Shown here piece after piece: positions 30,344 to 62,859 of a stretch of 64,000 nucleotides of DNA. Below the pieces are notes generated by a model that saw only the letters and a list, made by a program, of their open reading frames with translations, was not told the origin of the DNA and made no database searches. Location: positions 128,997 to 192,996 of the forward strand of contig CP091734.1 of assembly GCA_022009995.1 (NCBI GenBank), read 5' to 3'. The position numbers were made by a program, and so were the translations under genes. Each line of letters opens with the position of its first letter. Position 1 is the stretch's first letter. The stretch is from Clostridiales bacterium (GTDB lineage Bacteria; Bacillota; Clostridia; Christensenellales; CAG-917).

Positions 30344-30378
30344 AAAGCGCGGACGTTTTGTCCGCGCTTTTATTTTTC
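30344..30378. terminator. Bidirectional terminator.
   Basis: AAAGCGCGGAC-GTTT-GTCCGCGCTTT followed by a T run. It lies between convergent genes. Confidence 0.65.
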
Positions 30379-30416: not shown

Positions 30417-31445
30417 TTATCTTAAATCCGCAATATCGTAAATGAGCCTTTCGGTTTTATCCCACCCGAGGCATGCGTCGGTGATGGATTTCCCGTAAAT
30501 TTTGCCGTCCGACGGTTGCGAGCCGTCCTCGATATACGATTCGATCATCAGCCCTTTCACCATTTCCCCGATACCTTTGGAATAACGCGTGCTGTGCAAC
30601 ACTTCTTTTGCGATGCGCGGTTGCTCGTCGAATTTTTTTGCCGAATTCGAGTGGTTGGTATCGACGATGACGGCGGGGTTTTCAAGTCCGCTTTTCGCAT
30701 ACAGATCGCAAAGTTTGATAAGATCTTCGTAATGGTAATTCGGGATTGCCTGTCCGTTTTTATCCACCGAACCGCGCAGAATCGCGTGCGCGAGCGCATT
30801 TCCCGCGCTGTTCACTTCCCACCCCGAATACACGAATGTATGCGGGTGCTGCGCCGCGCGTATCGAATTCATCATGACGGACAAATCACCGCTTGTCGGG
30901 TTTTTCATACCGACGGGAATATCGAGCCCGCTTGCCGTGAGCCTGTGGAATTGGTTTTCAACCGACCTTGCGCCGACCGCAACGTACGACAATACGTCGG
31001 ACAGATACAGATGGTTTTCGGGATAAAGCATTTCGTCCGCACAGGAAAATCCCGTTTCGTTAAGCGCTTTTATGTGCAATTTCCTTATGGCGATCAGCCC
31101 TTTCAGCATATTTTCGTCGGCGTTGGGATCGGGCTGGTGCAGCATTCCCTTGTAGCCGTCGCCGGTCGTGCGCGGTTTGTTGGTATAAATGCGCGGCACG
31201 ATGACGATTTTGTCGGCGACCTTTTCCTGCACGCGCCTGAGCCTTGAAATATAGTCGAGAACGGCGTCCTCTCTGTCGGCGGAACACGGCCCGATTACCA
31301 AAAGCAGGCGGTTATCCTTCCCCGAAAAAATGTTTTTGAGTGTAGCGTCGGTATCTTTTTTGTGTGCCGCAAGCGCGTCGTTAAGCGGATACATCGCCTT
31401 GATTTCCTGCAACGTCGGCAGTTTTCTTTTGAATTCGAGATTCAT
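30417..31445 (-). CDS. 3-deoxy-7-phosphoheptulonate (DAHP) synthase, AroF/G/H type.
   Basis: ...LLLVIGPCSADRE...IYTNKPRTTGDGYKGMLHQPDP...VGARSVENQFHRL... Confidence 0.9.
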   Translation of the reverse strand: MNLEFKRKLPTLQEIKAMYPLNDALAAHKKDTDATLKNIFSGKDNRLLLVIGPCSADREDAVLDYISRLRRVQEKVADKIVIVPRIYTNKPRTTGDGYKGMLHQPDPNADENMLKGLIAIRKLHIKALNETGFSCADEMLYPENHLYLSDVLSYVAVGARSVENQFHRLTASGLDIPVGMKNPTSGDLSVMMNSIRAAQHPHTFVYSGWEVNSAGNALAHAILRGSVDKNGQAIPNYHYEDLIKLCDLYAKSGLENPAVIVDTNHSNSAKKFDEQPRIAKEVLHSTRYSKGIGEMVKGLMIESYIEDGSQPSDGKIYGKSITDACLGWDKTERLIYDIADLR

Positions 31446-32316
31446 TTATCTTGTCTCCTTTGCGTCTTTGTCAAACACTTTGCGGCGCGCCGTGGATTCG
31501 CGCAGCGTTTCTCTTATTTTTTCACGATTATCGTTTTTAATATCTTCTTTCAGTTGGTTGAATTTTTCTTCAAACAGGTCCATTTGTTTTAAGAGTTCGT
31601 CCTTGTTTGCAAGGAAAAGTTCGCTCCACATTTCGTCGTTGATTTTTGCGATGCGGGTAAGGTCGCGGAAGGAATCGCCCGTGTATTCGGCAAGATGGTG
31701 CGACTTTTTGGATACCATCAGCGATACGGCGATGCAATGCGTCAGATGCGACAAAAACCCCACCGTTTCGTCGTGCTCTTCGGGCGAAAGCGACGATATC
31801 CTTTCAAAACCGAGCGCGCGGCCGAGGTCTTTCACCGCCTGCACGTTTTCGTCGGTATTCTTTTTCGTGGGCGTCACGATGTAATTTGCCCCGACGAAGA
31901 TTTTCGGATCGGCGTTTTCGACGCCGCTGACTTCTTTGCCTGCCATCGGATGCGCCCCCACGAATTCCAAGTCGCCACGAAGAATTTTCTGCACGTTTTC
32001 GACGACGAACGACTTCACACCGGTAACGTCGGTGATAAGCGCGCCCGACTTTATCGATGATTGATATTCCTTAATCCAGTTTATGAAATCATGCGGATAC
32101 AGCGCAAAAACGATAAGGTCAAAGTCCTTTACGAAATCGTTTCACGCTTGTCTCGCCAACCTGTATAAGCCCGTTTTTCAACGCGTACTCGACCGAACTT
32201 TTCTTTTTGTCGATTGCGCCGACAAAGTATCCTTCGTCCGACAACGCCTTTGCGTAACTGCCGCCGATAAGTCCAAGCCCTACGATCAGGATTTTTGTGT
32301 TTTTATCGAATTTCAT
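31446..32316 (-). CDS. tyrA: Prephenate dehydrogenase. At least 1 frameshift near 32120.
   Basis: MKFDKNTKILIVGLGLIGGSYAKAL (Rossmann) joins ...FVGAHPMAGKEVSGVENA...EEHDETVGFLSHLTH.... Confidence 0.85.
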
Positions 32317-33513
32317 ATACGTTTACTCCTGCTTTTTTTATGACGCGGAAGAAATCGGGATAACTTTTGTTTACTGCCTCCGCCCCGTCGATTTCCGCGC
32401 CAAACACTGCCGCAAGCACCGAAAGCGCCATTACGATGCGGTGGTCGTTGTGTCCGCAAAGCGGCACAATCGGCGGTTTAAGTTGCGTTTTTTCAATTTC
32501 AACGCTGTTTTCGTACACTTTAACATTTGCGCCGAATTTTTCAGTTCTTCCGCCATAACGTTTGCGCGGTCGCTTTCTTTTACCCTTAACCGCCTTGTGT
32601 TTATGAACCTTCCGCCGTTTTTATATGCGGCGTACGCAAAAAGTATCGGCGCAAGGTCGGGACAGTCTTTAAGGTCGATTTCGGCGTTTTCGCCGTCCAG
32701 CGCGTCAAATGCGACGCTTGAAAATCTGTCGCCCTGCACGCTGTTTTCGTTGAGCCCCGAAACGCTTATTGTCCCCAAAAGGCGGGAAAGCGCAATTAAA
32801 AACGCGGCGTTCGACCAGTCGCCCTCAACTGTAAATTCGCCGGGCGAAAGCCGTCCTTTTCCGTTTATTTCAAAAAAGTTTTTTTCGGTTTCCGTAATAT
32901 CCGCGCCAAAGTCTTTCAAAACTTTTATCGTCATATCGACGTAAGCGCGGCTTTCGGCATTTCCCGTGATTTTAAGCGTGCTTTTGCCTGAAAGCCTCGA
33001 CAATGCAAACAACATTCCGGTTGTATATTGACTGCTGACCTCGCCGCTTATTTCGTAATTCCCCGCCGAGAGTGTCCCGCTTATTTCGATTGATTTTTCG
33101 TCGGAATTTATTTTTACGTCGCTGTTTTCAAAAAGTTTTTCGTATTCCTTTATCCCGCGCGCAAGCAGTCTTTCGCTCCCTAAAAACGTGCAGTTTTTCA
33201 CGCCTGTCGCAAGCACGACGGGGATAAAAAACCTCAGCGTGCTGCCGCTTTCTTTGCAGTCGAAAACCGCGTTTTCGATTTGCTTTTCGTTTGTCGGAAT
33301 AACGGTCACGATATTTCCGTCTTTCGTTACGCTTCCGCCAAGTTGTTCGATGCACGAAAGCGTTGCCGAAATATCGTCGCTGTCCGCAACGTTTTTTATC
33401 ACGCACTTTCCGCGCGACAAAACGCTGCCGATAAGATATCGGTGAGCAAAACTTTTTGACGGCGGCGCCGAAACTTCGCCCGACGTTTTTGACGGCAGAA
33501 TTTTAACCTTCAT
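32303..33513 (-). CDS. aroA: 3-phosphoshikimate 1-carboxyvinyltransferase (EPSP synthase). One frameshift near 32500.
   Basis: MKVKILPSKTSGEVSAPPSKSFAHRYLIGSVLS...; the C-terminus is in ORF 32303-32518 (...CGHNDHRIVMALSVLAAVF...). Confidence 0.9.
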
Positions 33514-33949
33514 TATTTATAAGATGATTTTTGAGCGCGTCCATCGCGATAAGGTATCCGTTAAGCCCTTGCCCTTCGACGGTGTCGATTGCGACCGCGC
33601 GGACGAAACTTATCTGTCTGTACGTTTCCCTTTCGCTGACGTACGAAATATGCACCTCGACGGTGGGTATCGACACGGCTTTCACGGCGTCGGCAAGCGC
33701 AATGCTCGTATGCGTATATCCCGCGGGATTGAACACGATGCCGTCAACGTGCGAAAAGTACGCGCGCTGGATTGCGTCGATGAGCGCGCCTTCGTGGTTC
33801 GACTGGAAAAACTCGACCTCCACGCCGATTTCTTCCGCGTGCTCTTTGACCTTTTCGACAAGAGCATCGTACGTTTCTTCTCCGTAAATTTCAGGCTCTC
33901 TTATGCCCAGCATATTGATATTCGGTCCGTTCAGAATAAGAAATTTCAT
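33503..33949 (-). CDS. aroQ: 3-dehydroquinate dehydratase, type II.
   Basis: MKFLILNGPNINMLGIREPEIYG...FQSNHEGALID...NPAGYTHTSIAL...VEVHISY. Start taken at ATG 33949. Confidence 0.9.
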   Translation of the reverse strand: MKFLILNGPNINMLGIREPEIYGEETYDALVEKVKEHAEEIGVEVEFFQSNHEGALIDAIQRAYFSHVDGIVFNPAGYTHTSIALADAVKAVSIPTVEVHISYVSERETYRQISFVRAVAIDTVEGQGLNGYLIAMDALKNHLINNEG

Positions 33950-35181
33950 AATAAAACTCCTTTTATTTTTTCGACGACGTCGGCGATTTCGCCGTCTGCG
34001 GGGATTACCGCGTCCGCGCACGACTTATAAACGTCGTATCTTTTTTCAAAAAGATTTTTGAGTTTTTCGGTGTCTGACGACAATGGTCTGTCGGCAGTTG
34101 CGACAAGGTTTTCAAGGCTTCTGTCCAGAAACAGAATTACGCCGTTTCGTCTGAGCGCGCGAACGTTGTTTTCGTCCAGCACCGCGCCGCCGCCCGTTGC
34201 GATGACAAGCCCGTTCTCTTTTGACAATTCCTCGATTGCAAGCCGTTCTTCCTTCCGAAATTCCCCTTCGCCGTACTTTTCAAAAATATCGCTTATGGAT
34301 TCATTCCGTTTTTCAACCACGACGTCGTCGGTGTCAATAAACTTTTTGCCAAAAACTTTTGCAATTTCTTTACCGACGGTCGTTTTCCCAGAAGACGGCA
34401 TACCGCAAAGCACGATATTGCGCTTTTCTTTCAGTATGCGGGCGTACGTTTTGTCGATGACGCTCTCATCTGCGGGTTTATCCAAAAACAACGCCGACGC
34501 ATAAACCGCCTGCGCCACAAGCATATACAGTCCGCCGCGCCCTTTCGCGCCGATACTTTCGGCGTTAAGCACGAAATTTGTGCGAAGGGGGTTGTAAACC
34601 GCGTCGATAACACCCTGCAAATTTTTGAATTTTTTAACGTCGACGGGCGTTTTGTCGGCATTTGGAAACATTCCGACAGGCGTCGTATTTATGATGACGT
34701 CCGCACCCGAATACTTTTCGTACGCTTCGTCGTATGTCACCGTGTCCGAAGACTTTTTTCTTGACACTTTCACGATTTTTTTCGCGCCAAGGCTTTTTGA
34801 AACCTCAACGGCGGTTTTCGACGTGCCGCCCGTGCCGAGTATCAGAACGGTTTTGTTTTCAAGGTCAAGCCCCGCGCTTTTGATGAGCGCGCGCATACCG
34901 AAAAAGTCGGTGTTGAATCCGAAAAGTTTCCCTTCCTTTTTGACAATCGTGTTCACCGCGCCGATTTTTTTCGCCTCGTCGGATATTTCGTCCAGAAACG
35001 GAATCACCGCCTGCTTGTAAGGAATCGTAACGTTTATGCCCGAAAAGTCGCGTTCTTGAAAAAAGCGCGGCAACTCGTCCTCGTCGATTTCAAAAAGACG
35101 ATAATCGTAGTCCGCAATGAGTGCGTGTATTTCGCGCGAGAAACTGTGCCCGAGCGGTTTTCCGATAAGCCCGTATTTCAT
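33946..35181 (-). CDS. aroE/aroK: Fused shikimate dehydrogenase / shikimate kinase.
   Basis: MKYGLIGKPLGHSFSREIH...NVTIPYKQ...GAVNTI... (AroE), then ...IVLCGMPSSGKTTVGKEIA...IATGGGAV... (AroK P-loop), all in one frame. Confidence 0.9.
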   Translation of the reverse strand: MKYGLIGKPLGHSFSREIHALIADYDYRLFEIDEDELPRFFQERDFSGINVTIPYKQAVIPFLDEISDEAKKIGAVNTIVKKEGKLFGFNTDFFGMRALIKSAGLDLENKTVLILGTGGTSKTAVEVSKSLGAKKIVKVSRKKSSDTVTYDEAYEKYSGADVIINTTPVGMFPNADKTPVDVKKFKNLQGVIDAVYNPLRTNFVLNAESIGAKGRGGLYMLVAQAVYASALFLDKPADESVIDKTYARILKEKRNIVLCGMPSSGKTTVGKEIAKVFGKKFIDTDDVVVEKRNESISDIFEKYGEGEFRKEERLAIEELSKENGLVIATGGGAVLDENNVRALRRNGVILFLDRSLENLVATADRPLSSDTEKLKNLFEKRYDVYKSCADAVIPADGEIADVVEKIKGVLL

Positions 35182-36273
35182 TTCCCGATACCTTTTGTCA
35201 TGACGTCCACGCCGTATTTTTGTTGCAGAAGATCGGCGACGGCAAGCGCGGCGACCGCGTCGATAACGGGACAAATCCTTCTTATTATCGCGGGATCGTG
35301 TCTGCCGCGAATATTGATTTCGGTTTCTTCGTTTTTCAAAAAATTGACCGTCTTTTGCGTTTTGTAAATGGACGGCGTGGGCTTTACGGCACACTTGAAA
35401 ATCACGGGCATGCCGTTGGTGATGCCGCCGTTTACGCCGCCGTTGTTGTTTGTAATCGTTACGACTTTTCCGTTTTTCAAAGCGAACGCGTCGTTTGCGG
35501 CGCTTCCTCTCATTTTTGTCATTTCAAAGCCGTTGCCGAATTCCACACCCTTAATCCCGCCGATTGAAAACAGCGCGTGCGAGAGTATGCTTTCAACGCT
35601 GTCGAACCACGGCTCGCCGACGCCTTCGGGCAGTCCGATTATTGCGGTTTCGGTGACGCCGCCGACGCTGTCGCCGTCGGCTTTCGCTTTTTCGATTTCT
35701 TCCTGCATCTTCTTCCCTTGTGCCTTGTCGATAACGGGGAATGTTGCGGATTTAATGGTTAATATCTCGTTTGATGTCGTTAAACGGCTTATCCTGCACA
35801 TTCGCACATTCAATGATGTGCGTCGCAATGTTAATTCCGATGCTTTCCAGCGCGCTTTTTACAATCGAAGCGGCAGCAACTATCCCTGCCGTTACGCGCC
35901 CCGAAAAGTGTCCGCCGCCGCGGTAATCTTCATATCCGTGATATTTGCAAAACGCCGTGTAATCGGCGTGCGACGGCCGCGCGATACCGTAATCGTAGTC
36001 ACCGCTTTTCGTATTTTCGTTTGGGACAATCACGCAAATCGGAGCGCCCGTCGTCCTGCCGTCCTTTACGCCGCTCATTATTTTGAAATTGTCGTTTTCG
36101 CGGCGCGCGGTGTCCGTGCTCGTCGATGGAGCGCGCCTTTTAAGGTCTTCCCTTATCAGGTTTTCGTCAACGACGATTCCCGCCGCGAGTCCGTCGATAA
36201 CCGCGCCGACGCATTCGCCGTGACTTTCGCCGAATACGGTAAGCGAAATGCTGTTTCCGAACGTGTTTTTCAT
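35178..36273 (-). CDS. aroC: Chorismate synthase. One frameshift near 35790.
   Basis: MKNTFGNSISLTVFGESHGECVGAVIDGL...RPSHADYTA...GGGHFSGR... joins ...GDSVGGVTE...RGRHDPAI.... Confidence 0.9.
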
Positions 36274-37271
36274 TTCTTTTTCTCCGATACTAAAAGTATT
36301 TCTTCCGCGGTGCGGTCGATAAACCTGAAACTTCCGATTTCGTCGACGTACACCGTCGAGATTTTTCCGCCGCTCGCTTTTTTGTCGTGCGTGATGTACG
36401 GCAGAAGTTGCGCCGCCGTTTTTTCGGTTCTGACGGGAAGACCAAACTTTGTCATAAGGTTTTCAAGGCGTGTTTTTACGCCGTCGGAACATGCGTACAG
36501 CATACCCGTCGCAACGCATTCGCCGTGCAAAAGTCTACCCTGCTCCGCGCTTTCGATTGCGTGTCCGACGGTATGGCCGAAGTTCAGAACCTTTCTTAAT
36601 CCCTCTTCTTTTTCGTCCTTTTCCACGACGGTTTTTTTGATGAGTATCGACCTTTCGATGATTTCTTTCACGTCGCGTTTCACGTCGGCGTTTTCGATAA
36701 ATTCAAAAAGCGATGCGTCCGACGTCGCCGCCATTTTTATCGACTCAGCAAGCCCTGCGTAAAATTGTCTGTCGTCAAGCGTGCTTAAAACGCGAGGGTC
36801 GACCACGACCGCTTTCGGCTGATAAAATGAGCCGACGACGTTTTTCACGCCCATAAAGTCGATTGCGGTTTTCCCGCCGATTGACGAGTCCACCATCGAC
36901 AAAAGGGTTGTCGGCACGTTGTAAAAATCGACGCCGCGCATATAACACGACGCGGCGAATCCGCCGATATCCCCGACAACGCCGCCGCCGACAGCCACAA
37001 CGCAATCTTTCCTTGAAAACGAGTTTTCAAGCATAACGGAAAGGATATGTTTGAAGTTGTCAAAATTTTTGCTTTCTTCGCCGTGTTTAAGAGTCACGAC
37101 AACGGGGGTTTCGCATTTTTTCGCGACTTTTTCGGCGTACTTTTCGGGCACTCCGTCGTCGGTCAGAACCAGAACCTTTTTGTTAAGGTTAAGGTATTTT
37201 TCCGCGTCGTCAAGCGCGCCGTTTTCGACGATGACGTCGTATTTTTCGTCAAGATTTACGGGTATAATCAT
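36270..37271 (-). CDS. aroB: 3-dehydroquinate synthase.
   Basis: Start ATG 37271: MIIPVNLDEKYDVIVENG...VAVGGGVVGDIGGFAASCYMRGVDFYNVPTTLL...GKTAID...FGHTVGHAIE. Confidence 0.9.
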   Translation of the reverse strand: MIIPVNLDEKYDVIVENGALDDAEKYLNLNKKVLVLTDDGVPEKYAEKVAKKCETPVVVTLKHGEESKNFDNFKHILSVMLENSFSRKDCVVAVGGGVVGDIGGFAASCYMRGVDFYNVPTTLLSMVDSSIGGKTAIDFMGVKNVVGSFYQPKAVVVDPRVLSTLDDRQFYAGLAESIKMAATSDASLFEFIENADVKRDVKEIIERSILIKKTVVEKDEKEEGLRKVLNFGHTVGHAIESAEQGRLLHGECVATGMLYACSDGVKTRLENLMTKFGLPVRTEKTAAQLLPYITHDKKASGGKISTVYVDEIGSFRFIDRTAEEILLVSEKKK

Positions 37272-38374
37272 TTTTCGTATTCCTCGTCCGAGAAGTAGCT
37301 GCCGACAAGTTTCAGCTTGGCGCAAAGCGCGGACAGCTCTTGCATAAGTTCTTTTCCGTTTTGCGTATTGACGTTTCCTTCCGCCTCGATGTAAAAATAG
37401 TAATTCCATTTCAGGTTTTTCATCGGACGGGAACGAAGCGCGCGCATATTGAAGTTGTGTGCGCCGATTATGTTCAACGCGCTTGCGAGCGCGCCCGATT
37501 CGTTCTGCACCGTGAACACCAGAATAAAGTTTTCGTTTTCTCTTTTCGTGAGGCAAAACGGCGTATTTTCAACTCTTGAAAACGCGGCGAATCTCGTCGT
37601 GTTGGTTTTCACGTCGTTGACGCTTTTTTCAATGATATCGAGCCCGAAAACGTTTGCGGTTTCGTCGGAGGCAATCGCGGCAATCGTTTTGTCGCCGCTG
37701 TCTTTGACGAACTTTGCGGCAAGCGCGGTGTTGGAATACGCTTTGACCTCAAAATTGTTTTTCTTTATGAAATCCGCGCACTGCATAAGCGCCTGCGGAT
37801 GGCTCACGACGGTTTTTATCGTGTCGACGCTTGCGCCGGGCAATGCCAGAAGATTGTGCGTGATCGGCACTTCGATAACCTGATTTATATGCAGATCGCC
37901 CGAAAACGTCAAATCCATAACCTCGCCGACTTCCCCGGCATAACTGTTTTCAAGCGGAAGCACGGCGCAGTCGTAGTCACCCTTTTCGACGCCCTCGTAC
38001 GCCTCCGAAAAAGTCGCGCAGGGCTTGTACGTCGCGGTCGGAAACATTTTCTTCGCGGCGATGTGTGCAAACGCCCCCTCGACGCCGCAGTACGCGACGG
38101 TCATATTCCGAAGCAGCGATTCCTGATACTTACAGGACACGTCGATCGTGTTTCTGATGAAGTCGACGTAATACGGTTTCAGGCTTTCGTCCGTGACGAA
38201 TTTTGAATTGCGTTTTGCGACTTCCGCCTCGCGGGAAAGGTCGCGGACGGACAGACCGTTGTCCTTTTTATACACGGCAACGTCTTTCACGGCTTCCATT
38301 CTTTTCTGGAACAGTTGCGCCATTTGTTTGTCGATTTCGTTGATTTCGTTCCTTGCGTCCAAAATATCTTTCAT
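37268..38374 (-). CDS. pheA: Bifunctional chorismate mutase / prephenate dehydratase (P-protein).
   Basis: MKDILDARNEINEIDKQMAQLFQKRMEA (CM), ...VAYCGVEGAFAH...TRFAAFS... (PDT), and a C-terminal ACT domain. Start chosen at ATG 38374 (AGAGG RBS). The ORF is open up to 38404. Confidence 0.9.
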   Translation of the reverse strand: MKDILDARNEINEIDKQMAQLFQKRMEAVKDVAVYKKDNGLSVRDLSREAEVAKRNSKFVTDESLKPYYVDFIRNTIDVSCKYQESLLRNMTVAYCGVEGAFAHIAAKKMFPTATYKPCATFSEAYEGVEKGDYDCAVLPLENSYAGEVGEVMDLTFSGDLHINQVIEVPITHNLLALPGASVDTIKTVVSHPQALMQCADFIKKNNFEVKAYSNTALAAKFVKDSGDKTIAAIASDETANVFGLDIIEKSVNDVKTNTTRFAAFSRVENTPFCLTKRENENFILVFTVQNESGALASALNIIGAHNFNMRALRSRPMKNLKWNYYFYIEAEGNVNTQNGKELMQELSALCAKLKLVGSYFSDEEYEK

Positions 38375-38483
38375 ATAAACCTCTGTCTTTTCCATTATAA
38401 TCAATTTTGATTATAAAACCATCGTTTTTTCACATATTTCGCGCTGTTTTCCGTATATATTGCAAATCGGCGCGGTTTTTCGT

Positions 38484-38514
38484 ATAAAAAAAGCGATTCC
38501 GCAAAGGAATCGCT
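38484..38514 (-). terminator. Attenuator terminator in the aro/phe operon leader.
   Basis: Minus strand: AGCGAUUCC-UUUGC-GGAAUCGCU followed by UUUUUUUAUACG. It lies 30 nt after the leader-peptide stop and ~110 nt before the pheA start. Confidence 0.65.
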
Positions 38515-38544
38515 AACTTACCTGAAAAAAAAGTGCGTCGACTT

Positions 38545-38619
38545 TCAGCGTCCCTTGCAGAATGAAACGTTGTTTTGAAAGTAATAGTAATAAAACTTGT
38601 TTTCGACGAAGTTTTTCAT
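38545..38619 (-). CDS. Candidate leader peptide MKNFVENKFYYYYFQNNVSFCKGR (24 aa). Not in the ORF track.
   Basis: My own translation of the minus strand, 38619 down to 38545. 8 of 24 residues are Phe or Tyr, including the run F-Y-Y-Y-Y-F. An AAAGGG SD-like box lies 8 nt upstream. A promoter lies upstream and a terminator downstream. Confidence 0.55.
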   Translation of the reverse strand: MKNFVENKFYYYYFQNNVSFCKGR

Positions 38620-38648
38620 AATACGCCCTTTGAATTTTCGATATAACT

Positions 38649-38677
38649 ATGATAATGCCCTTTTCACGATTTGTCAA
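38649..38677 (-). promoter_or_regulatory. Promoter of the aromatic amino acid operon leader.
   Basis: On the minus strand: TTGACA (38672-38677), 17 nt, TATCAT (38649-38654). Confidence 0.45.
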
Positions 38678-38714
38678 CTTCATTTCGGCAAAAGAATAAT
38701 TTCAAAAGGTTTTT

Positions 38715-38753
38715 AATAAAAAGAAAAAGAAGGACGCGCCTTTCGACGCGTCC
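38715..38753 (-). terminator. Terminator of the glycyl-radical enzyme operon.
   Basis: GGACGCG-UCGAAAGG-CGCGUCC followed by UUCUUUUUCUUUUUAUU on the minus strand. Confidence 0.6.
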
Positions 38754-38764
38754 GCATTGCATTA

Positions 38765-39590
38765 TCAAAACTCCGTGACTTCTTTATATTCCTCTTTGGG
38801 ATAAGTATATCCGCAAACCGGTGGCATCGAGTTGTAAACCCTGTCGATGTCGACGTAACCAATTCCGTTTGAATCCCGAGAACGTTCCTTTCACGAGCAC
38901 GCTTTCCATCTCAAGGCTTATCGCCATGACGGCAACACGGGCTCCTTTTTTTAAACCGCCAAAAAGTGTTTTATACGGGCTTGCGGTGAACACTATACGG
39001 TCACGCCCGACGGCTTGAGCCTGTACGGCGGGAACGATTGCCGGATATCCCTCGTCATTGATAAACGAGACGAATTTCGGGTTGCCCAACGCATTGAATA
39101 GTTTAGTCGCAAACGGGCTGATAATATCCTCGCCGTTTTTATTCTTCATAAACCCTTTTAACATAAGCACTCTGACCGCGTTGACGCCGACGCCAAAAAG
39201 ATTGAGCTTCTTCTTTTCTGTTATACCTTTTAAATGCGCATAATGCACCTTCCCTATTCCGAAATAGGTATTGAACCGCCACATCTGCATATTGTTGTAT
39301 TTGATGTATTCCTCGCCTTCGGTTTTCATATCGTACCAGTCGCAAAAGCCCGTCCAAAGATTCATATCGAGCGTCAATATCGCAAAGCCCGACTTGTGCC
39401 TTTCGATCATATTGACCTTACTAAGTCCCTGCGAAAACTGCCCCGCAACCATCGTATTTTCGTCCTTTGCCATAAGCGTTGTGATAAGTGAAATATGCGG
39501 ATCGCGATCGGCACCGATAGTTGCGATTACAGCCAACTTTTCGCTTTTTTCAAATGTATTAAAATCATTTGGATTTATTTTTTCGTTCAT
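38765..39590 (-). CDS. Hypothetical protein, possibly a PNPOx-like/flavin-binding split-barrel family member (tentative). One frameshift near 38870.
   Basis: MNEKINPNDFNTFEKSEKLAVIATIGADRDPHISLITTLMAKDENT... The alternative frame after ~38870 gives a more natural C-terminus, ...GFKRNGIGYVDIDRVYNSMPPVCGYTYPKEEYKEVTEF. Confidence 0.4.
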
Positions 39591-50658: not shown

Positions 50659-52254
50659 ATGGAAAATGTTTACGAGAAAATTCAAAAGTATAAGAAACTG
50701 GCGGTGAAAAAACCGAAGTATTATGTTTCTATCGGTAATATTTATATCGAAGAGGGCGCTTTCAAGGCCGCAACGATTTACTATCAAAAAGCCGTCGACA
50801 ACGGCGTTTTGGCATATACTGTTCTTGGCGACACTTGGGGCTACCGCTCTCAATACAAAAAAGCGTTCGACGTTTATACGGAGGGCGCAAACAAAGGCGA
50901 AGCGGAGTGTTTTGCCCGTCTTGGATTTTGCTATGAAAACGGTTATGTAAAAAAAATCGATATTCAAAAAGCAATCGAGTGTTACGCCAAAGCCTCCGAT
51001 TTGGGTGTGGCGGCAGCGGCAAGATCTCTCGGCGATTTGTATTATTTCAATACGCCGATTGAAGATTCCGAGATCGAAAACGTTAAAAATGCGTTGAAAT
51101 ATTACGAGCGTGCTTTTTACCTCGGAGATATAGAGGTTGCAAAAAAGATAGGCTTTATCTACTTAAACAATGAAGAACTGAAAGACGTTCCCAAAGCCAT
51201 AGAGTGGTACGAAAAGGGATTGAGTCTTGGCGATCACTCTCTCAACTTTGATTTGGCTTACGTTTATCTCAACGACAGGTTTGTTCCGCACGACTATGAA
51301 AAAGGTTTGAAATATCTTTTGGACGGCGTTCACCACAACGATCCCGAAAGCCTTTATATGTACGCAAGAGTTCGCGAAACGGGTATGTATAAGGTAGAAC
51401 CCGACAAAAAGGCATATATTCATTATCTCAAAAAGGCGGCGAACCTTTGTCAGGACGACGCATTGCTTGATTTGGGGTATTACTATTACAAAAAAGGCAA
51501 GTATGACGACACGCTCGATTGTTTTGCACTGTGCGATTTGGATTATGTCGGCGTTTATTGGTGTATGGCGACGATTTACGAAACCAAAAAAGCCGATTAC
51601 AAAAATGCGCTGTTTTATTATCAGATGGCAATGGAAATGGACTTTCCGGACGCAATCGAACGAATGGCGGAAGCGTATCTCGGCGACGAACTTGGACTTG
51701 AAAAGGACGAGAAAACCGCCCTTAAACTTTTCAAACGAGCCGCGAAACTCGGCAACGCCGCCGCACAATATAATCTCGGTATGGCGTATGCTTGCGGATA
51801 TTACGGCGTAACACCCGATAAAGATAAGGCACTTCATTGGCTGAAACAGAGCGTTAAAGGCGAAAATCCGTCGGCGTGCCTGCAAGTGGGGCTTTATTAC
51901 TACTACACCGTCAAAACCGAAGCGGCTTATAAAAAAGCCTTTGAATTATTTACCGACGCATACAATCTCGGCGAGAACGAAGCGATTATCAATATCGGAC
52001 TTTGCTATCTTCAAGGCAACGGCGTGAAAGAAGACAAAAAAGAAGCGGTAAAATGCTTTAAGACAGCCGCCGAAAAGTACAGTTCGGGCGTTGCGTATCA
52101 CAATCTCGGAATCTGCTATGAAAACGGATTTGGTGTGAGAAAAGACTATAAGAAAGCAATTGAAATGTACGGCAAAGCGGTAGAGAACGGCGAAAAAGCA
52201 GGACTTGAAGGAATTAAAAACGTTTATTTGAAAATGGGTAAAGATAAAAATTAA
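50659..52254 (+). CDS. Sel1-repeat (SLR/TPR-like) protein, 531 aa. Intact.
   Basis: About 12 repeats of the type A.KWY.KAA..G...A...LG..Y..G.GV..D..KA (for example KALHWLKQSVKGENPSACLQVGLYYYY; AVKCFKTAAEKYSSGVAYHNLGICYENGFGVRKDYKKAIEMYGKA). Confidence 0.85.
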   Translation: MENVYEKIQKYKKLAVKKPKYYVSIGNIYIEEGAFKAATIYYQKAVDNGVLAYTVLGDTWGYRSQYKKAFDVYTEGANKGEAECFARLGFCYENGYVKKIDIQKAIECYAKASDLGVAAAARSLGDLYYFNTPIEDSEIENVKNALKYYERAFYLGDIEVAKKIGFIYLNNEELKDVPKAIEWYEKGLSLGDHSLNFDLAYVYLNDRFVPHDYEKGLKYLLDGVHHNDPESLYMYARVRETGMYKVEPDKKAYIHYLKKAANLCQDDALLDLGYYYYKKGKYDDTLDCFALCDLDYVGVYWCMATIYETKKADYKNALFYYQMAMEMDFPDAIERMAEAYLGDELGLEKDEKTALKLFKRAAKLGNAAAQYNLGMAYACGYYGVTPDKDKALHWLKQSVKGENPSACLQVGLYYYYTVKTEAAYKKAFELFTDAYNLGENEAIINIGLCYLQGNGVKEDKKEAVKCFKTAAEKYSSGVAYHNLGICYENGFGVRKDYKKAIEMYGKAVENGEKAGLEGIKNVYLKMGKDKN

Positions 52255-62635: not shown

Positions 62636-62691
62636 AAAAAAACCTCCTTTAAGAGGTTCGCGTTAAAAGCCGCGCGAAAACGCGGTACTTC

Positions 62692-62781
62692 GCAGCGAAC
62701 GCGACAAGCCACCGCAGGTTTCCCTTTCGTTTGCGGGCGACATTCCATCCCGCAACACTTAACGCGACTTATCTACTCTGC
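62692..62781 (-). promoter_or_regulatory. THF (tetrahydrofolate) riboswitch, folT motif.
   Basis: Minus strand: GCAGAGUAGAUAAGUCGCGUUAAGUGUUGCGGGAUGGAAUGUCGCCCGCAAACGAAAGGGAAACCUGCGGUGGCUUGUCGCGUUCGCUGC. It matches, block by block, the Eubacterium siraeum THF aptamer as I recall it (AGAGUAGAU..UCGCGUUAAGUGU, AUGG.AUGUCG, AACGAA, GCGGUG, CGCU). Confidence 0.85.
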
Positions 62782-62859
62782 AACGCTAATAATAAACTAT
62801 CCGCGCCGAAAAATCAAGCGGCGGCGCATAAATCGCGAAAACTTAAAAATAATAGCGAT

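Follow-up and report, generated by a model that had tools for sequence, protein, structure and literature searches.

In the 64,000-nt stretch of a Clostridiales bacterium genome analysed here (assembly GCA_022009995.1, contig CP091734.1, positions 128,997–192,996; hereafter the window), the minus-strand region ahead of pheA very probably acts as a ribosome-mediated transcription attenuator that is keyed to Tyr and Phe and stands before an operon running from pheA to a DAHP synthase gene. This reading, drawn from sequence comparison and RNA folding models, had been put forward in an earlier note on the same DNA, and every computationally testable prediction of it holds, whether it concerns translation signals, aromatic codon enrichment, position, covariation or alternative folds. 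If it is correct, Clostridia that are abundant in the human gut, although uncultured, would regulate the whole shikimate/Phe/Tyr pathway via tRNA charging as sensed by translation.

Promoter, small open reading frame (ORF), terminator and pheA follow one another on the minus strand just where the earlier note had placed them, as judged by the sequence, a consensus scan and Pfam. The consensus scan identifies a –35 hexamer TTGACA (38672–38677) and a –10 hexamer TATCAT (38649–38654) that are separated by a 17-nt spacer and together match 11 of 12 consensus positions; from their location, transcription would start near 38642, ∼7 nt past TATCAT. The Shine–Dalgarno-like sequence AAAGGG (38626–38631) lies 6 nt 5′ of an ATG at 38619, which opens the leader ORF MKNFVENKFYYYYFQNNVSFCKGR (24 codons followed by TGA at 38547–38545; 38545–38619 in all). 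Codons 9–14 of this ORF, UUU UAU UAC UAU UAC UUU (38578–38595), specify F9-Y10-Y11-Y12-Y13-F14, confirming the run of Tyr flanked by Phe that had been described for it, and we take these to be the regulatory codons. The intrinsic terminator AGCGATTCC-TTTGC-GGAATCGCT with its T7 run (38485–38514) is found both in the sequence and by folding. In the RNA it forms a 9-bp stem (AGCGAUUCC/GGAAUCGCU) with the loop UUUGC (38514–38492), followed by U7, at –13.2 to –13.7 kcal/mol.

Three segments of the leader are distinguished here. Segment 2, UUCUGCAAGGGA-CGCUGA (38545–38562, minus strand), comprises codons 20–24 and the stop codon and constitutes the antiterminator 5′ strand. Its partner, segment 3 (UUAGCG-AU-UCCUUUGCGGAA; 38497–38516, minus), spans the terminator 5′ arm, the loop and the first 4 nt of the 3′ arm. 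The antiterminator proposed earlier is supported, but the ∼10 bp previously estimated for it falls short; the segment 2–segment 3 helix amounts to 18 bp, one block of 12 and one of 6 with a 2-nt bulge between them. Segment 1, ACUUUCA ... CGUUUC (38564–38582, minus), emerges from the minimum-energy folds with partners GGGACG and UGAAAGU in segment 2, and we infer that it is a candidate anti-antiterminator strand. A tract of U8 (38525–38532, minus) lies between segment 2 and the terminator and is paired with the 5′ untranslated region and start region in the naked-RNA fold; its length varies, being U7 in 3 of the 39 strains described below, and one may speculate that it serves as a pause site.

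Assuming that a ribosome protects ∼12–15 nt downstream of its A site, we folded the RNA that would be left free by ribosomes at different codons. Leaving the RNA free from 38578 or 38566, as a ribosome with Tyr10 or Phe14 in its A site would, makes the antiterminator the most stable structure (–22.0 to –23.5 kcal/mol), and this fold wins even when the complete terminator and U7 are included. With the RNA free from 38532, mimicking a ribosome at the UGA, the terminator forms instead (–13.7 kcal/mol). The check for mutually exclusive structures that had been suggested for this leader thus gives the predicted outcome in both states. In the naked leader the terminator form is at –33.5 kcal/mol and an enforced antiterminator at –32.1 kcal/mol, a cost of 1.4 kcal/mol. 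Here segment 2 is sequestered by segment 1, which overlaps the stretch Phe14–Ser19, as well as by a helix that joins codons 2–6 to the post-stop region over a long range; because these two elements hold segment 2, untranslated RNA probably defaults to termination.

In the mechanism that we propose, RNA polymerase would begin ∼7 nt past TATCAT and a ribosome would load at AAAGGG/AUG and translate the 24-codon leader. When Tyr and Phe are plentiful, the ribosome would reach the UGA and cover segment 2 (UUCUGCAAGGGACGCUGA), the terminator hairpin would form and the polymerase would stop at the U7 run, yielding a transcript of ∼157 nt. When Tyr-tRNA or Phe-tRNA is scarce, the ribosome would stall at F-YYYY-F, where it would cover segment 1 while its footprint ends before segment 2; free segment 2 could then form its 18 bp with the terminator 5′ arm and loop, which would prevent the terminator from folding, and the operon would be transcribed. 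Operon output would in this way follow the supply of charged tRNA-Tyr and tRNA-Phe. The presence of both pheA and tyrA in the operon fits a dual Tyr/Phe sensor.

Two important questions for this model are (i) whether an ORF of this composition could be expected by chance and (ii) whether the arrangement recurs ahead of pheA in related genomes. Within the window, at least 6 Phe/Tyr in 8 residues occur in 5 of 1002 small ORFs, and just one of the five, the leader, is flanked by a promoter and a terminator. The string YYYY is found three times in the six-frame translation of the 64-kb window, the other two occurrences being at 51478 and 51895 (plus strand, frame 0), and the pattern GCAARGGA-N25-55-TCCTTTRC is present once where 0.01 occurrences are expected. 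For the second question we collected 41 pheA-upstream regions of 600 nt each; the nearest relatives in genome collections are uncultured Clostridia, Christensenella-like and Acutalibacteraceae metagenome-assembled genomes. The search of related pheA loci for short Tyr/Phe ORFs that the earlier note had proposed turns up, in 14 of the 41 regions, a small ORF in which 5 or more of 8 residues are Phe or Tyr, against a mean of 2.46 and a maximum of 6 in dinucleotide shuffles and 3 in the reverse complement. With at least 6 in 8 the count is 9 of 41, against a shuffle mean of 0.24 (maximum 2) and none in the reverse complement.

The leader peptides (loci are designated by L numbers) are MKNFVDNKYYYYYFFNNVSIRKGR in L001, MFARDYFYFYFGSNSLRKGS in L029 and MNTVYYFAYCFFYYFSSIIKVPQRMSY in L007, and others end in ...ENGYFYFYFRNFCPRKGR (L005), ...RFSSYCVYYYCNEVACRKGR (L002 and L003), ...CVYYYYRNFVAHRKGR (L004), ...RFYSYRAYFFTR (L087), ...RFYSCCAFYCFGRSSTAW (L008) and ...NNYFSFTFARFYAGFYCFAKNE (L016). 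Every one of these contains both Tyr and Phe codons, and Trp codons are present in the run of none. The choice among UAU, UAC, UUU and UUC varies from leader to leader while the amino-acid class is constant. Most carry AAGGAG, AGGAGG or GGGAGG at normal spacing 5′ of the ORF, a stronger Shine–Dalgarno sequence than that of the window and at the same position. The terminators of L029, L016, L001 and L007 were assigned by hand, the automatic finder having mis-called all four.

Longer leaders have the classical four-segment layout, with a clearer segment 1 than that of the window. An in-ORF copy of segment 3 that pairs with segment 2 is present in L003, L004, L005, L008 and L094; the copy is UCCUUUGC, which pairs with GCAAAGGA, or GUCCUUUA in the L008 clade. 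A hairpin inside the ORF just before the Tyr run, ACGCAGUGCGA-UUUAGU-UCGUAUUGCGU followed by U-rich sequence, is kept in L002, L003 (2608–2640), L011, L004, L008, L009 and L094 and is absent from the short leader of the window. This hairpin may make RNA polymerase pause and so synchronize transcription with translation.

A further six leaders (L031/L116, L028, L022, L023, L034 and L013) have no nucleotide similarity to that of the window and share its layout: a Tyr/Phe-rich ORF, a ribosome-binding site (in most a Shine–Dalgarno sequence) or a near-leaderless start, and a terminator just before pheA. In the minimum-energy folds of L028 and L031, an ORF segment (GAUGGAUU, or CGAUGG) pairs with the terminator 5′ arm. 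These leaders suggest that one device has evolved repeatedly or turns over rapidly. Other relatives are without a Tyr/Phe ORF, and five of them carry the palindrome GTTAACAGTGTTAAC 20–35 nt before pheA and just downstream of a strong promoter (L019:300–314, L020:2956–2970, L021:2968–2982, L026:1679–1693 and L027:1627–1641). The palindrome is probably a repressor operator, providing an alternative regulation of pheA. We also note that a tRNA-Arg gene adjoins the leader upstream in L031 (2721–2795) and L116 (1170–1244), where the leader may be co-transcribed with the tRNA gene or follow it, and adjoins pheA in L035 (2897–2969). Such upstream tRNA genes were set aside as irrelevant, the tRNA being tRNA-Arg and not one for Tyr or Phe.

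The antiterminator is also conserved. In 15 leaders we searched the region past the aromatic run for its best duplex with the terminator 5′ half and scored the result as a z value against shuffles. In 13 of the 15 the best duplex falls at the end of the ORF or immediately beyond it, beginning 16–27 nt past the last aromatic codon, with energies of –11.6 to –21.5 kcal/mol and z values of –1.8 to –4.6; that of L002 differs and is non-significant (z –1.4). Nearly all lineages have, at the stop codon, a segment complementary to the 5′ arm and loop of the terminator, and its position relative to the stop is constant. The leader of L087 and L108 stops (UAA) 5 nt before the conserved GCAAAGGACGC begins, so that the 'RKGR' tail that recurs in other leaders is untranslated there; the recurrence of this tail therefore reflects a constraint on the RNA and not on the peptide. 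A ribosome at the L087/L108 stop would, by the footprint assumed above, still cover the GCAAAGGACGC segment.

Pair counts were made on a gapless, motif-anchored alignment (A3) in which A8 replaces the linker; a MAFFT alignment of whole leaders (A1) was dropped for this purpose, having misaligned the UCCUUU core from clade to clade. Anchoring on GGA/UCC gives 12 aligned core pairs, and 6 of the first 8 are invariant or show wobble changes only. Most leaders have C-G at pair 7, where L008, L009 and L006 have U-A and L094 has U.G; pair 9 is C-G, U.G or G-C; and pair 10 is C-G or U-A. The changes from C-G to U-A or G-C are compensatory, with U.G as an intermediate. The 12 core pairs are formed in 91.1% of alignment cells, a figure that the anchoring favours, as compared with 84.3% in shuffled alignments (none of 500 as high) and 42–61% for slid partners. 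For covariation the score is 0.305, a value that none of 500 shuffles attains (0.170). The arms of the terminator covary across relatives as well.

Strain variation is consistent with these constraints. The leader is nearly identical, with few single-nucleotide polymorphisms, in ∼40 human-gut metagenome contigs whose PheA is 99–100% identical, and our population set comprises 38 such contigs and the window (n = 39). There are 4 segregating sites in the 135 nt from the leader ORF to the end of the terminator, none of them in the 30 nt of the terminator itself, as against 11 in the 110 nt of the terminator–pheA spacer (Fisher P = 0.03 versus the leader) and 102 in the 1107 nt of the pheA coding sequence. 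Third codon positions of the leader ORF have no segregating site in 25, compared with 81 in 369 for pheA (P = 0.004), an invariance that fits a constraint on the RNA. The ORF variants are K2I, N3S, F9Y (38594 T>A) and Y12F (38585 A>T; from a partial contig), so that the regulatory codons change among strains solely from Phe to Tyr and from Tyr to Phe. The –35 hexamer is the same in 38 or more strains and in L001. The promoter spacer occurs as two alleles that are quite different in sequence and have TTGACA, TATCAT and the 17-nt spacing in common; one strain has TATTAT as its –10 hexamer.

Downstream of the leader, the operon (30417–38374, minus strand; assigned from Pfam and from the gene calls of locus L117, described below) consists of pheA, aroB, aroC, aroE-aroK, aroQ, aroA, tyrA and the DAHP synthase gene. 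The earlier note had counted nine downstream genes, a number that we revise to eight ORFs, two of which are fusions (chorismate mutase–prephenate dehydratase, CM–PDT, and AroE–AroK). pheA starts with the ATG at 38374 and encodes CM_2, PDT and ACT domains (chorismate mutase, prephenate dehydratase and ACT). Stops and starts overlap or abut in L117, where all eight genes are intact, and there is no convincing operon-strand terminator inside the operon. Because the ORFs are so tightly packed and uninterrupted by a convincing terminator, control of all of them from the leader, as previously claimed, is plausible. The operon is closed by a bidirectional terminator (30344–30370), a strong palindrome whose 12-bp stem has an A run on one side and a T run on the other, which can also serve a convergent plus-strand gene.

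The claim of control over every gene needs to leave room for a second input, however, since a conserved block, AAAAAACGATGGTTTTATAATCAAAATTGATTATAATGG (38394–38428, minus), lies between the terminator and the ribosome-binding site of pheA. This block contains two TATAAT motifs and a perfect 10 + 10 inverted repeat, TTATAATCAA-AA-TTGATTATAA (around 38396–38417), which occurs once in the window. The block is common to L001 and L029 and is found in altered form in L002–4 and L011. The consensus scan detects no promoter with at least 9 of 12 consensus matches within 38394–38428; inspection by hand shows a perfect TATAAT, a weak –35 and a TG that is one base out of register. The block could still be an operator or a weak or regulated second promoter. 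Strain L042 (OGLM01000366.1) has a 100% identical PheA, but upstream of its position 1424 (38452 of the window) its DNA is unrelated and apparently coding. It is without the promoter, leader and terminator and keeps the block; this is a natural variant that has no attenuator, or else the contig is chimeric.

It is this block and L042 that lend substance to one alternative, namely that the small ORF is an independent micro-peptide gene with its own terminator and that pheA is expressed mainly from a promoter within 38394–38428: the two TATAAT motifs lie past the terminator in the window, L001, L029, L002–4 and L011, and L042 has retained them in the absence of leader and terminator. Against it, the length (20–49 residues) and sequence of the peptides are unconserved save for aromatic content and an RNA-constrained tail, the 'RKGR' of that tail is untranslated in L087 and L108, and the zero polymorphism at third positions fits a constraint on the RNA. 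Moreover, the terminators of L005, L006, L008, L009, L094 and L007 lie 36–84 nt from the pheA start with no block in between, and the block itself yields no promoter in the consensus scan and matches a –35 poorly. We consider this alternative very unlikely. Chance juxtaposition, in which an AT-rich ORF happens to lie beside the terminator of a short non-coding transcript, can appeal to the ease with which T- and A-rich intergenic DNA gives Phe and Tyr codons and to the four other small ORFs of the window with an equal aromatic score, but it is effectively refuted by the enrichment over shuffles and reverse complement, the conserved position, the covariation and the lower polymorphism, and we give it next to no credence.

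The switch might also be real and set by some other factor, such as an RNA-binding protein, uncharged tRNA or a small ligand, with the aromatic ORF being incidental. Mutually exclusive folds alone leave the sensor unidentified, and in model Firmicutes aromatic genes are controlled by T-box or TRAP; the earlier note had named these as the expected mechanisms. That expectation is right for the model organisms but not for the loci at hand. A scan of 38300–38800 with cmscan finds no Rfam family in the leader at E ≤ 10 (including T-box RF00230, Phe_leader and Leu/phe leader RF01743), with chance-level matches only, and when the window and 40 related loci are scanned, neither the leader nor any of the 40 has a T-box or other Rfam match that reaches the gathering score. 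Nor is there a TRAP-type array of ∼9–11 (G/U)AG triplets spaced 2–3 nt apart, the leader having no GAG and a single UAG. The Tyr/Phe enrichment is in frame after a start codon, in leaders otherwise dissimilar in nucleotides, and UAU, UAC, UUU and UUC interchange while the amino-acid class is kept. Control by a different factor is accordingly very improbable in our judgement, and sensing by a translating ribosome is the reading that we prefer.

Several observations nevertheless weigh against attenuation as we describe it. The whole case rests on computation. The Shine–Dalgarno sequence of the window is modest, and segment 1 is weak (6 + 7 bp), with L001 retaining the inner 6 bp only; the two naked-RNA states are so nearly equal in energy that thermodynamics does not settle which of them is the default. 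A significant antiterminator duplex is missing from L007 (z –0.33) and L016 (z +0.30). The compensatory changes trace to what is essentially a single clade split, between the L008 group and the rest, and therefore represent few independent events, and the anchors of alignment A3 were picked using the motif itself. Finally, part of operon expression may bypass the attenuator, given that the TATAAT block is conserved and is kept by L042.

Textbooks describe leader-peptide attenuation (trp, phe, his and leu), which has been documented mostly in Proteobacteria and Actinobacteria, and to our knowledge just a handful of such attenuators have been described in Firmicutes. One of the closest parallels is pheL–pheA of Escherichia coli and other gammaproteobacteria, where an ORF of end-product codons precedes pheA (CM–PDT) and the ribosome sets a terminator/antiterminator choice (PMC3082878, PMC11802643). 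The window leader shares with it a short ORF rich in end-product codons, followed by terminator and antiterminator, ahead of pheA. It differs in being mostly Tyr, with four in succession and Phe at the flanks, where pheL has Phe runs; in preceding an eight-ORF operon of the common pathway with tyrA, where pheL precedes pheA alone; and in its Clostridia host. The Rfam model of pheL–pheA shows no sequence or structure match to the window leader in the cmscan search. In Corynebacterium glutamicum, the aroR leader (Phe-Tyr-Phe) before aroF responds to Phe and not to Tyr, according to the account of Neshat 2014 given in PMC11802643. Compared by that description, aroR resembles the window leader in its mixed Phe/Tyr peptide, its aromatic-pathway operon and its use of ribosome stalling, and differs in its Actinobacterium host, its three regulatory codons and its Phe-only response.

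Leader-peptide attenuators are nonetheless already known from Firmicutes (PMC2965389, PMC8632094, PMC2864571), which further qualifies the previous expectation of T-box or TRAP control; on such control in Firmicutes, a passage of PMC1262725 cites Panina 2003. The predicted uORFC-13-1, an upstream ORF with an intrinsic terminator before aroF in Acholeplasma and environmental sequences (PMC8632094), is similar, as far as its description goes, in having a Phe-codon ORF by a terminator, a shikimate-pathway gene and a host related to Firmicutes; by the same description it has a U run encoding at least one Phe, no Tyr run, and a position upstream of aroF. Firmicutes do have amino-acid leader-peptide attenuation next to T-boxes, as is shown by Lactococcus lactis with its Leu/phe leader RF01743 (PMC2864571), by bacilli with a His leader (PMC2965389) and by Staphylococcus aureus with a Leu-rich ilv-leu attenuator peptide (PMC5794164). 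These leaders concern other amino acids, genes and RNA sequences, and RF01743 is unmatched in the window leader. A T-box has in common with the leader described here that it precedes amino-acid genes of Firmicutes, chooses between terminator and antiterminator and reads out tRNA charging, whereas its specifier loop and T-box sequence sense uncharged tRNA directly and no ORF is involved.

The mechanism itself is thus already known and opens no new mechanistic question. What stands out is that Tyr dominates the run, the lineage to which the host belongs, and the occurrence of several independent designs of leader ahead of orthologous pheA genes. Tyrosine-dominated regulatory runs are, as far as we know, rare among described leaders. 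We found no Tyr/Phe leader from Clostridia in the open-access literature or in Rfam 15, an absence that is weak evidence of novelty. There is about an even chance, in our estimate, that the leaders form an uncatalogued family of dual Tyr/Phe attenuators that is widespread in uncultured gut and rumen Clostridia, has an invariant AAAGGA:UCCUUU core and fills the role that belongs to T-boxes in the aromatic biosynthesis of model Firmicutes, with some members under a second control. Within such a family, the ORF would turn over rapidly (20–49 codons; two or more unrelated RNA designs) and the six-pair core at the stop codon would be kept, and some lineages would have a second DNA- or promoter-level element between attenuator and pheA. 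With several non-homologous Tyr/Phe leaders before orthologous pheA genes, these loci offer a good system in which to study the birth and replacement of attenuators.

The 24-codon ORF was missed by gene callers. Public gene calls place a 56-residue ORF over the leader in another frame (38513–38683, minus; L117:1758–1928); this ORF begins upstream of the –35 hexamer and is broken in other strains, and it is almost certainly a spurious call that masks the real leader. The genes upstream of the promoter region (38632–38700; compared in L041, L044 and L118) vary among strains: the window has a radical-SAM gene and a gene of 275 residues there, L118 has an MMPL gene, and further strains have others. 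Homology to L118 begins at ∼38658, and both hexamers and the 17-nt spacing are kept nonetheless. In the window the upstream gene ends at 38784 and has its own terminator (38753–38732, minus).

The public assembly GCA_021624375.1 (locus L117) matches the window with no mismatches over 11 kb, and the leader is identical in the two, with no indel. The window is, however, short by 1–2 bases relative to L117 in five A/T runs, at 38870, 35772, 32541, 32142 and 30092, and these indels disrupt the frames of the upstream 275-residue gene, aroC, aroA, tyrA and one plus-strand gene. We rejected the possibility that aroC, aroA and tyrA are pseudogenes, the same genes being intact in the otherwise identical L117; their apparent frameshifts result from the homopolymer indels, which by comparison of the two copies resemble errors of assembly or sequencing, or else edits, in that of the window. 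Elsewhere in the window, the Rfam scan detects a tetrahydrofolate (THF) riboswitch aptamer at 62691–62782 on the minus strand, with a score of 75.9 bits that is well over the gathering score.

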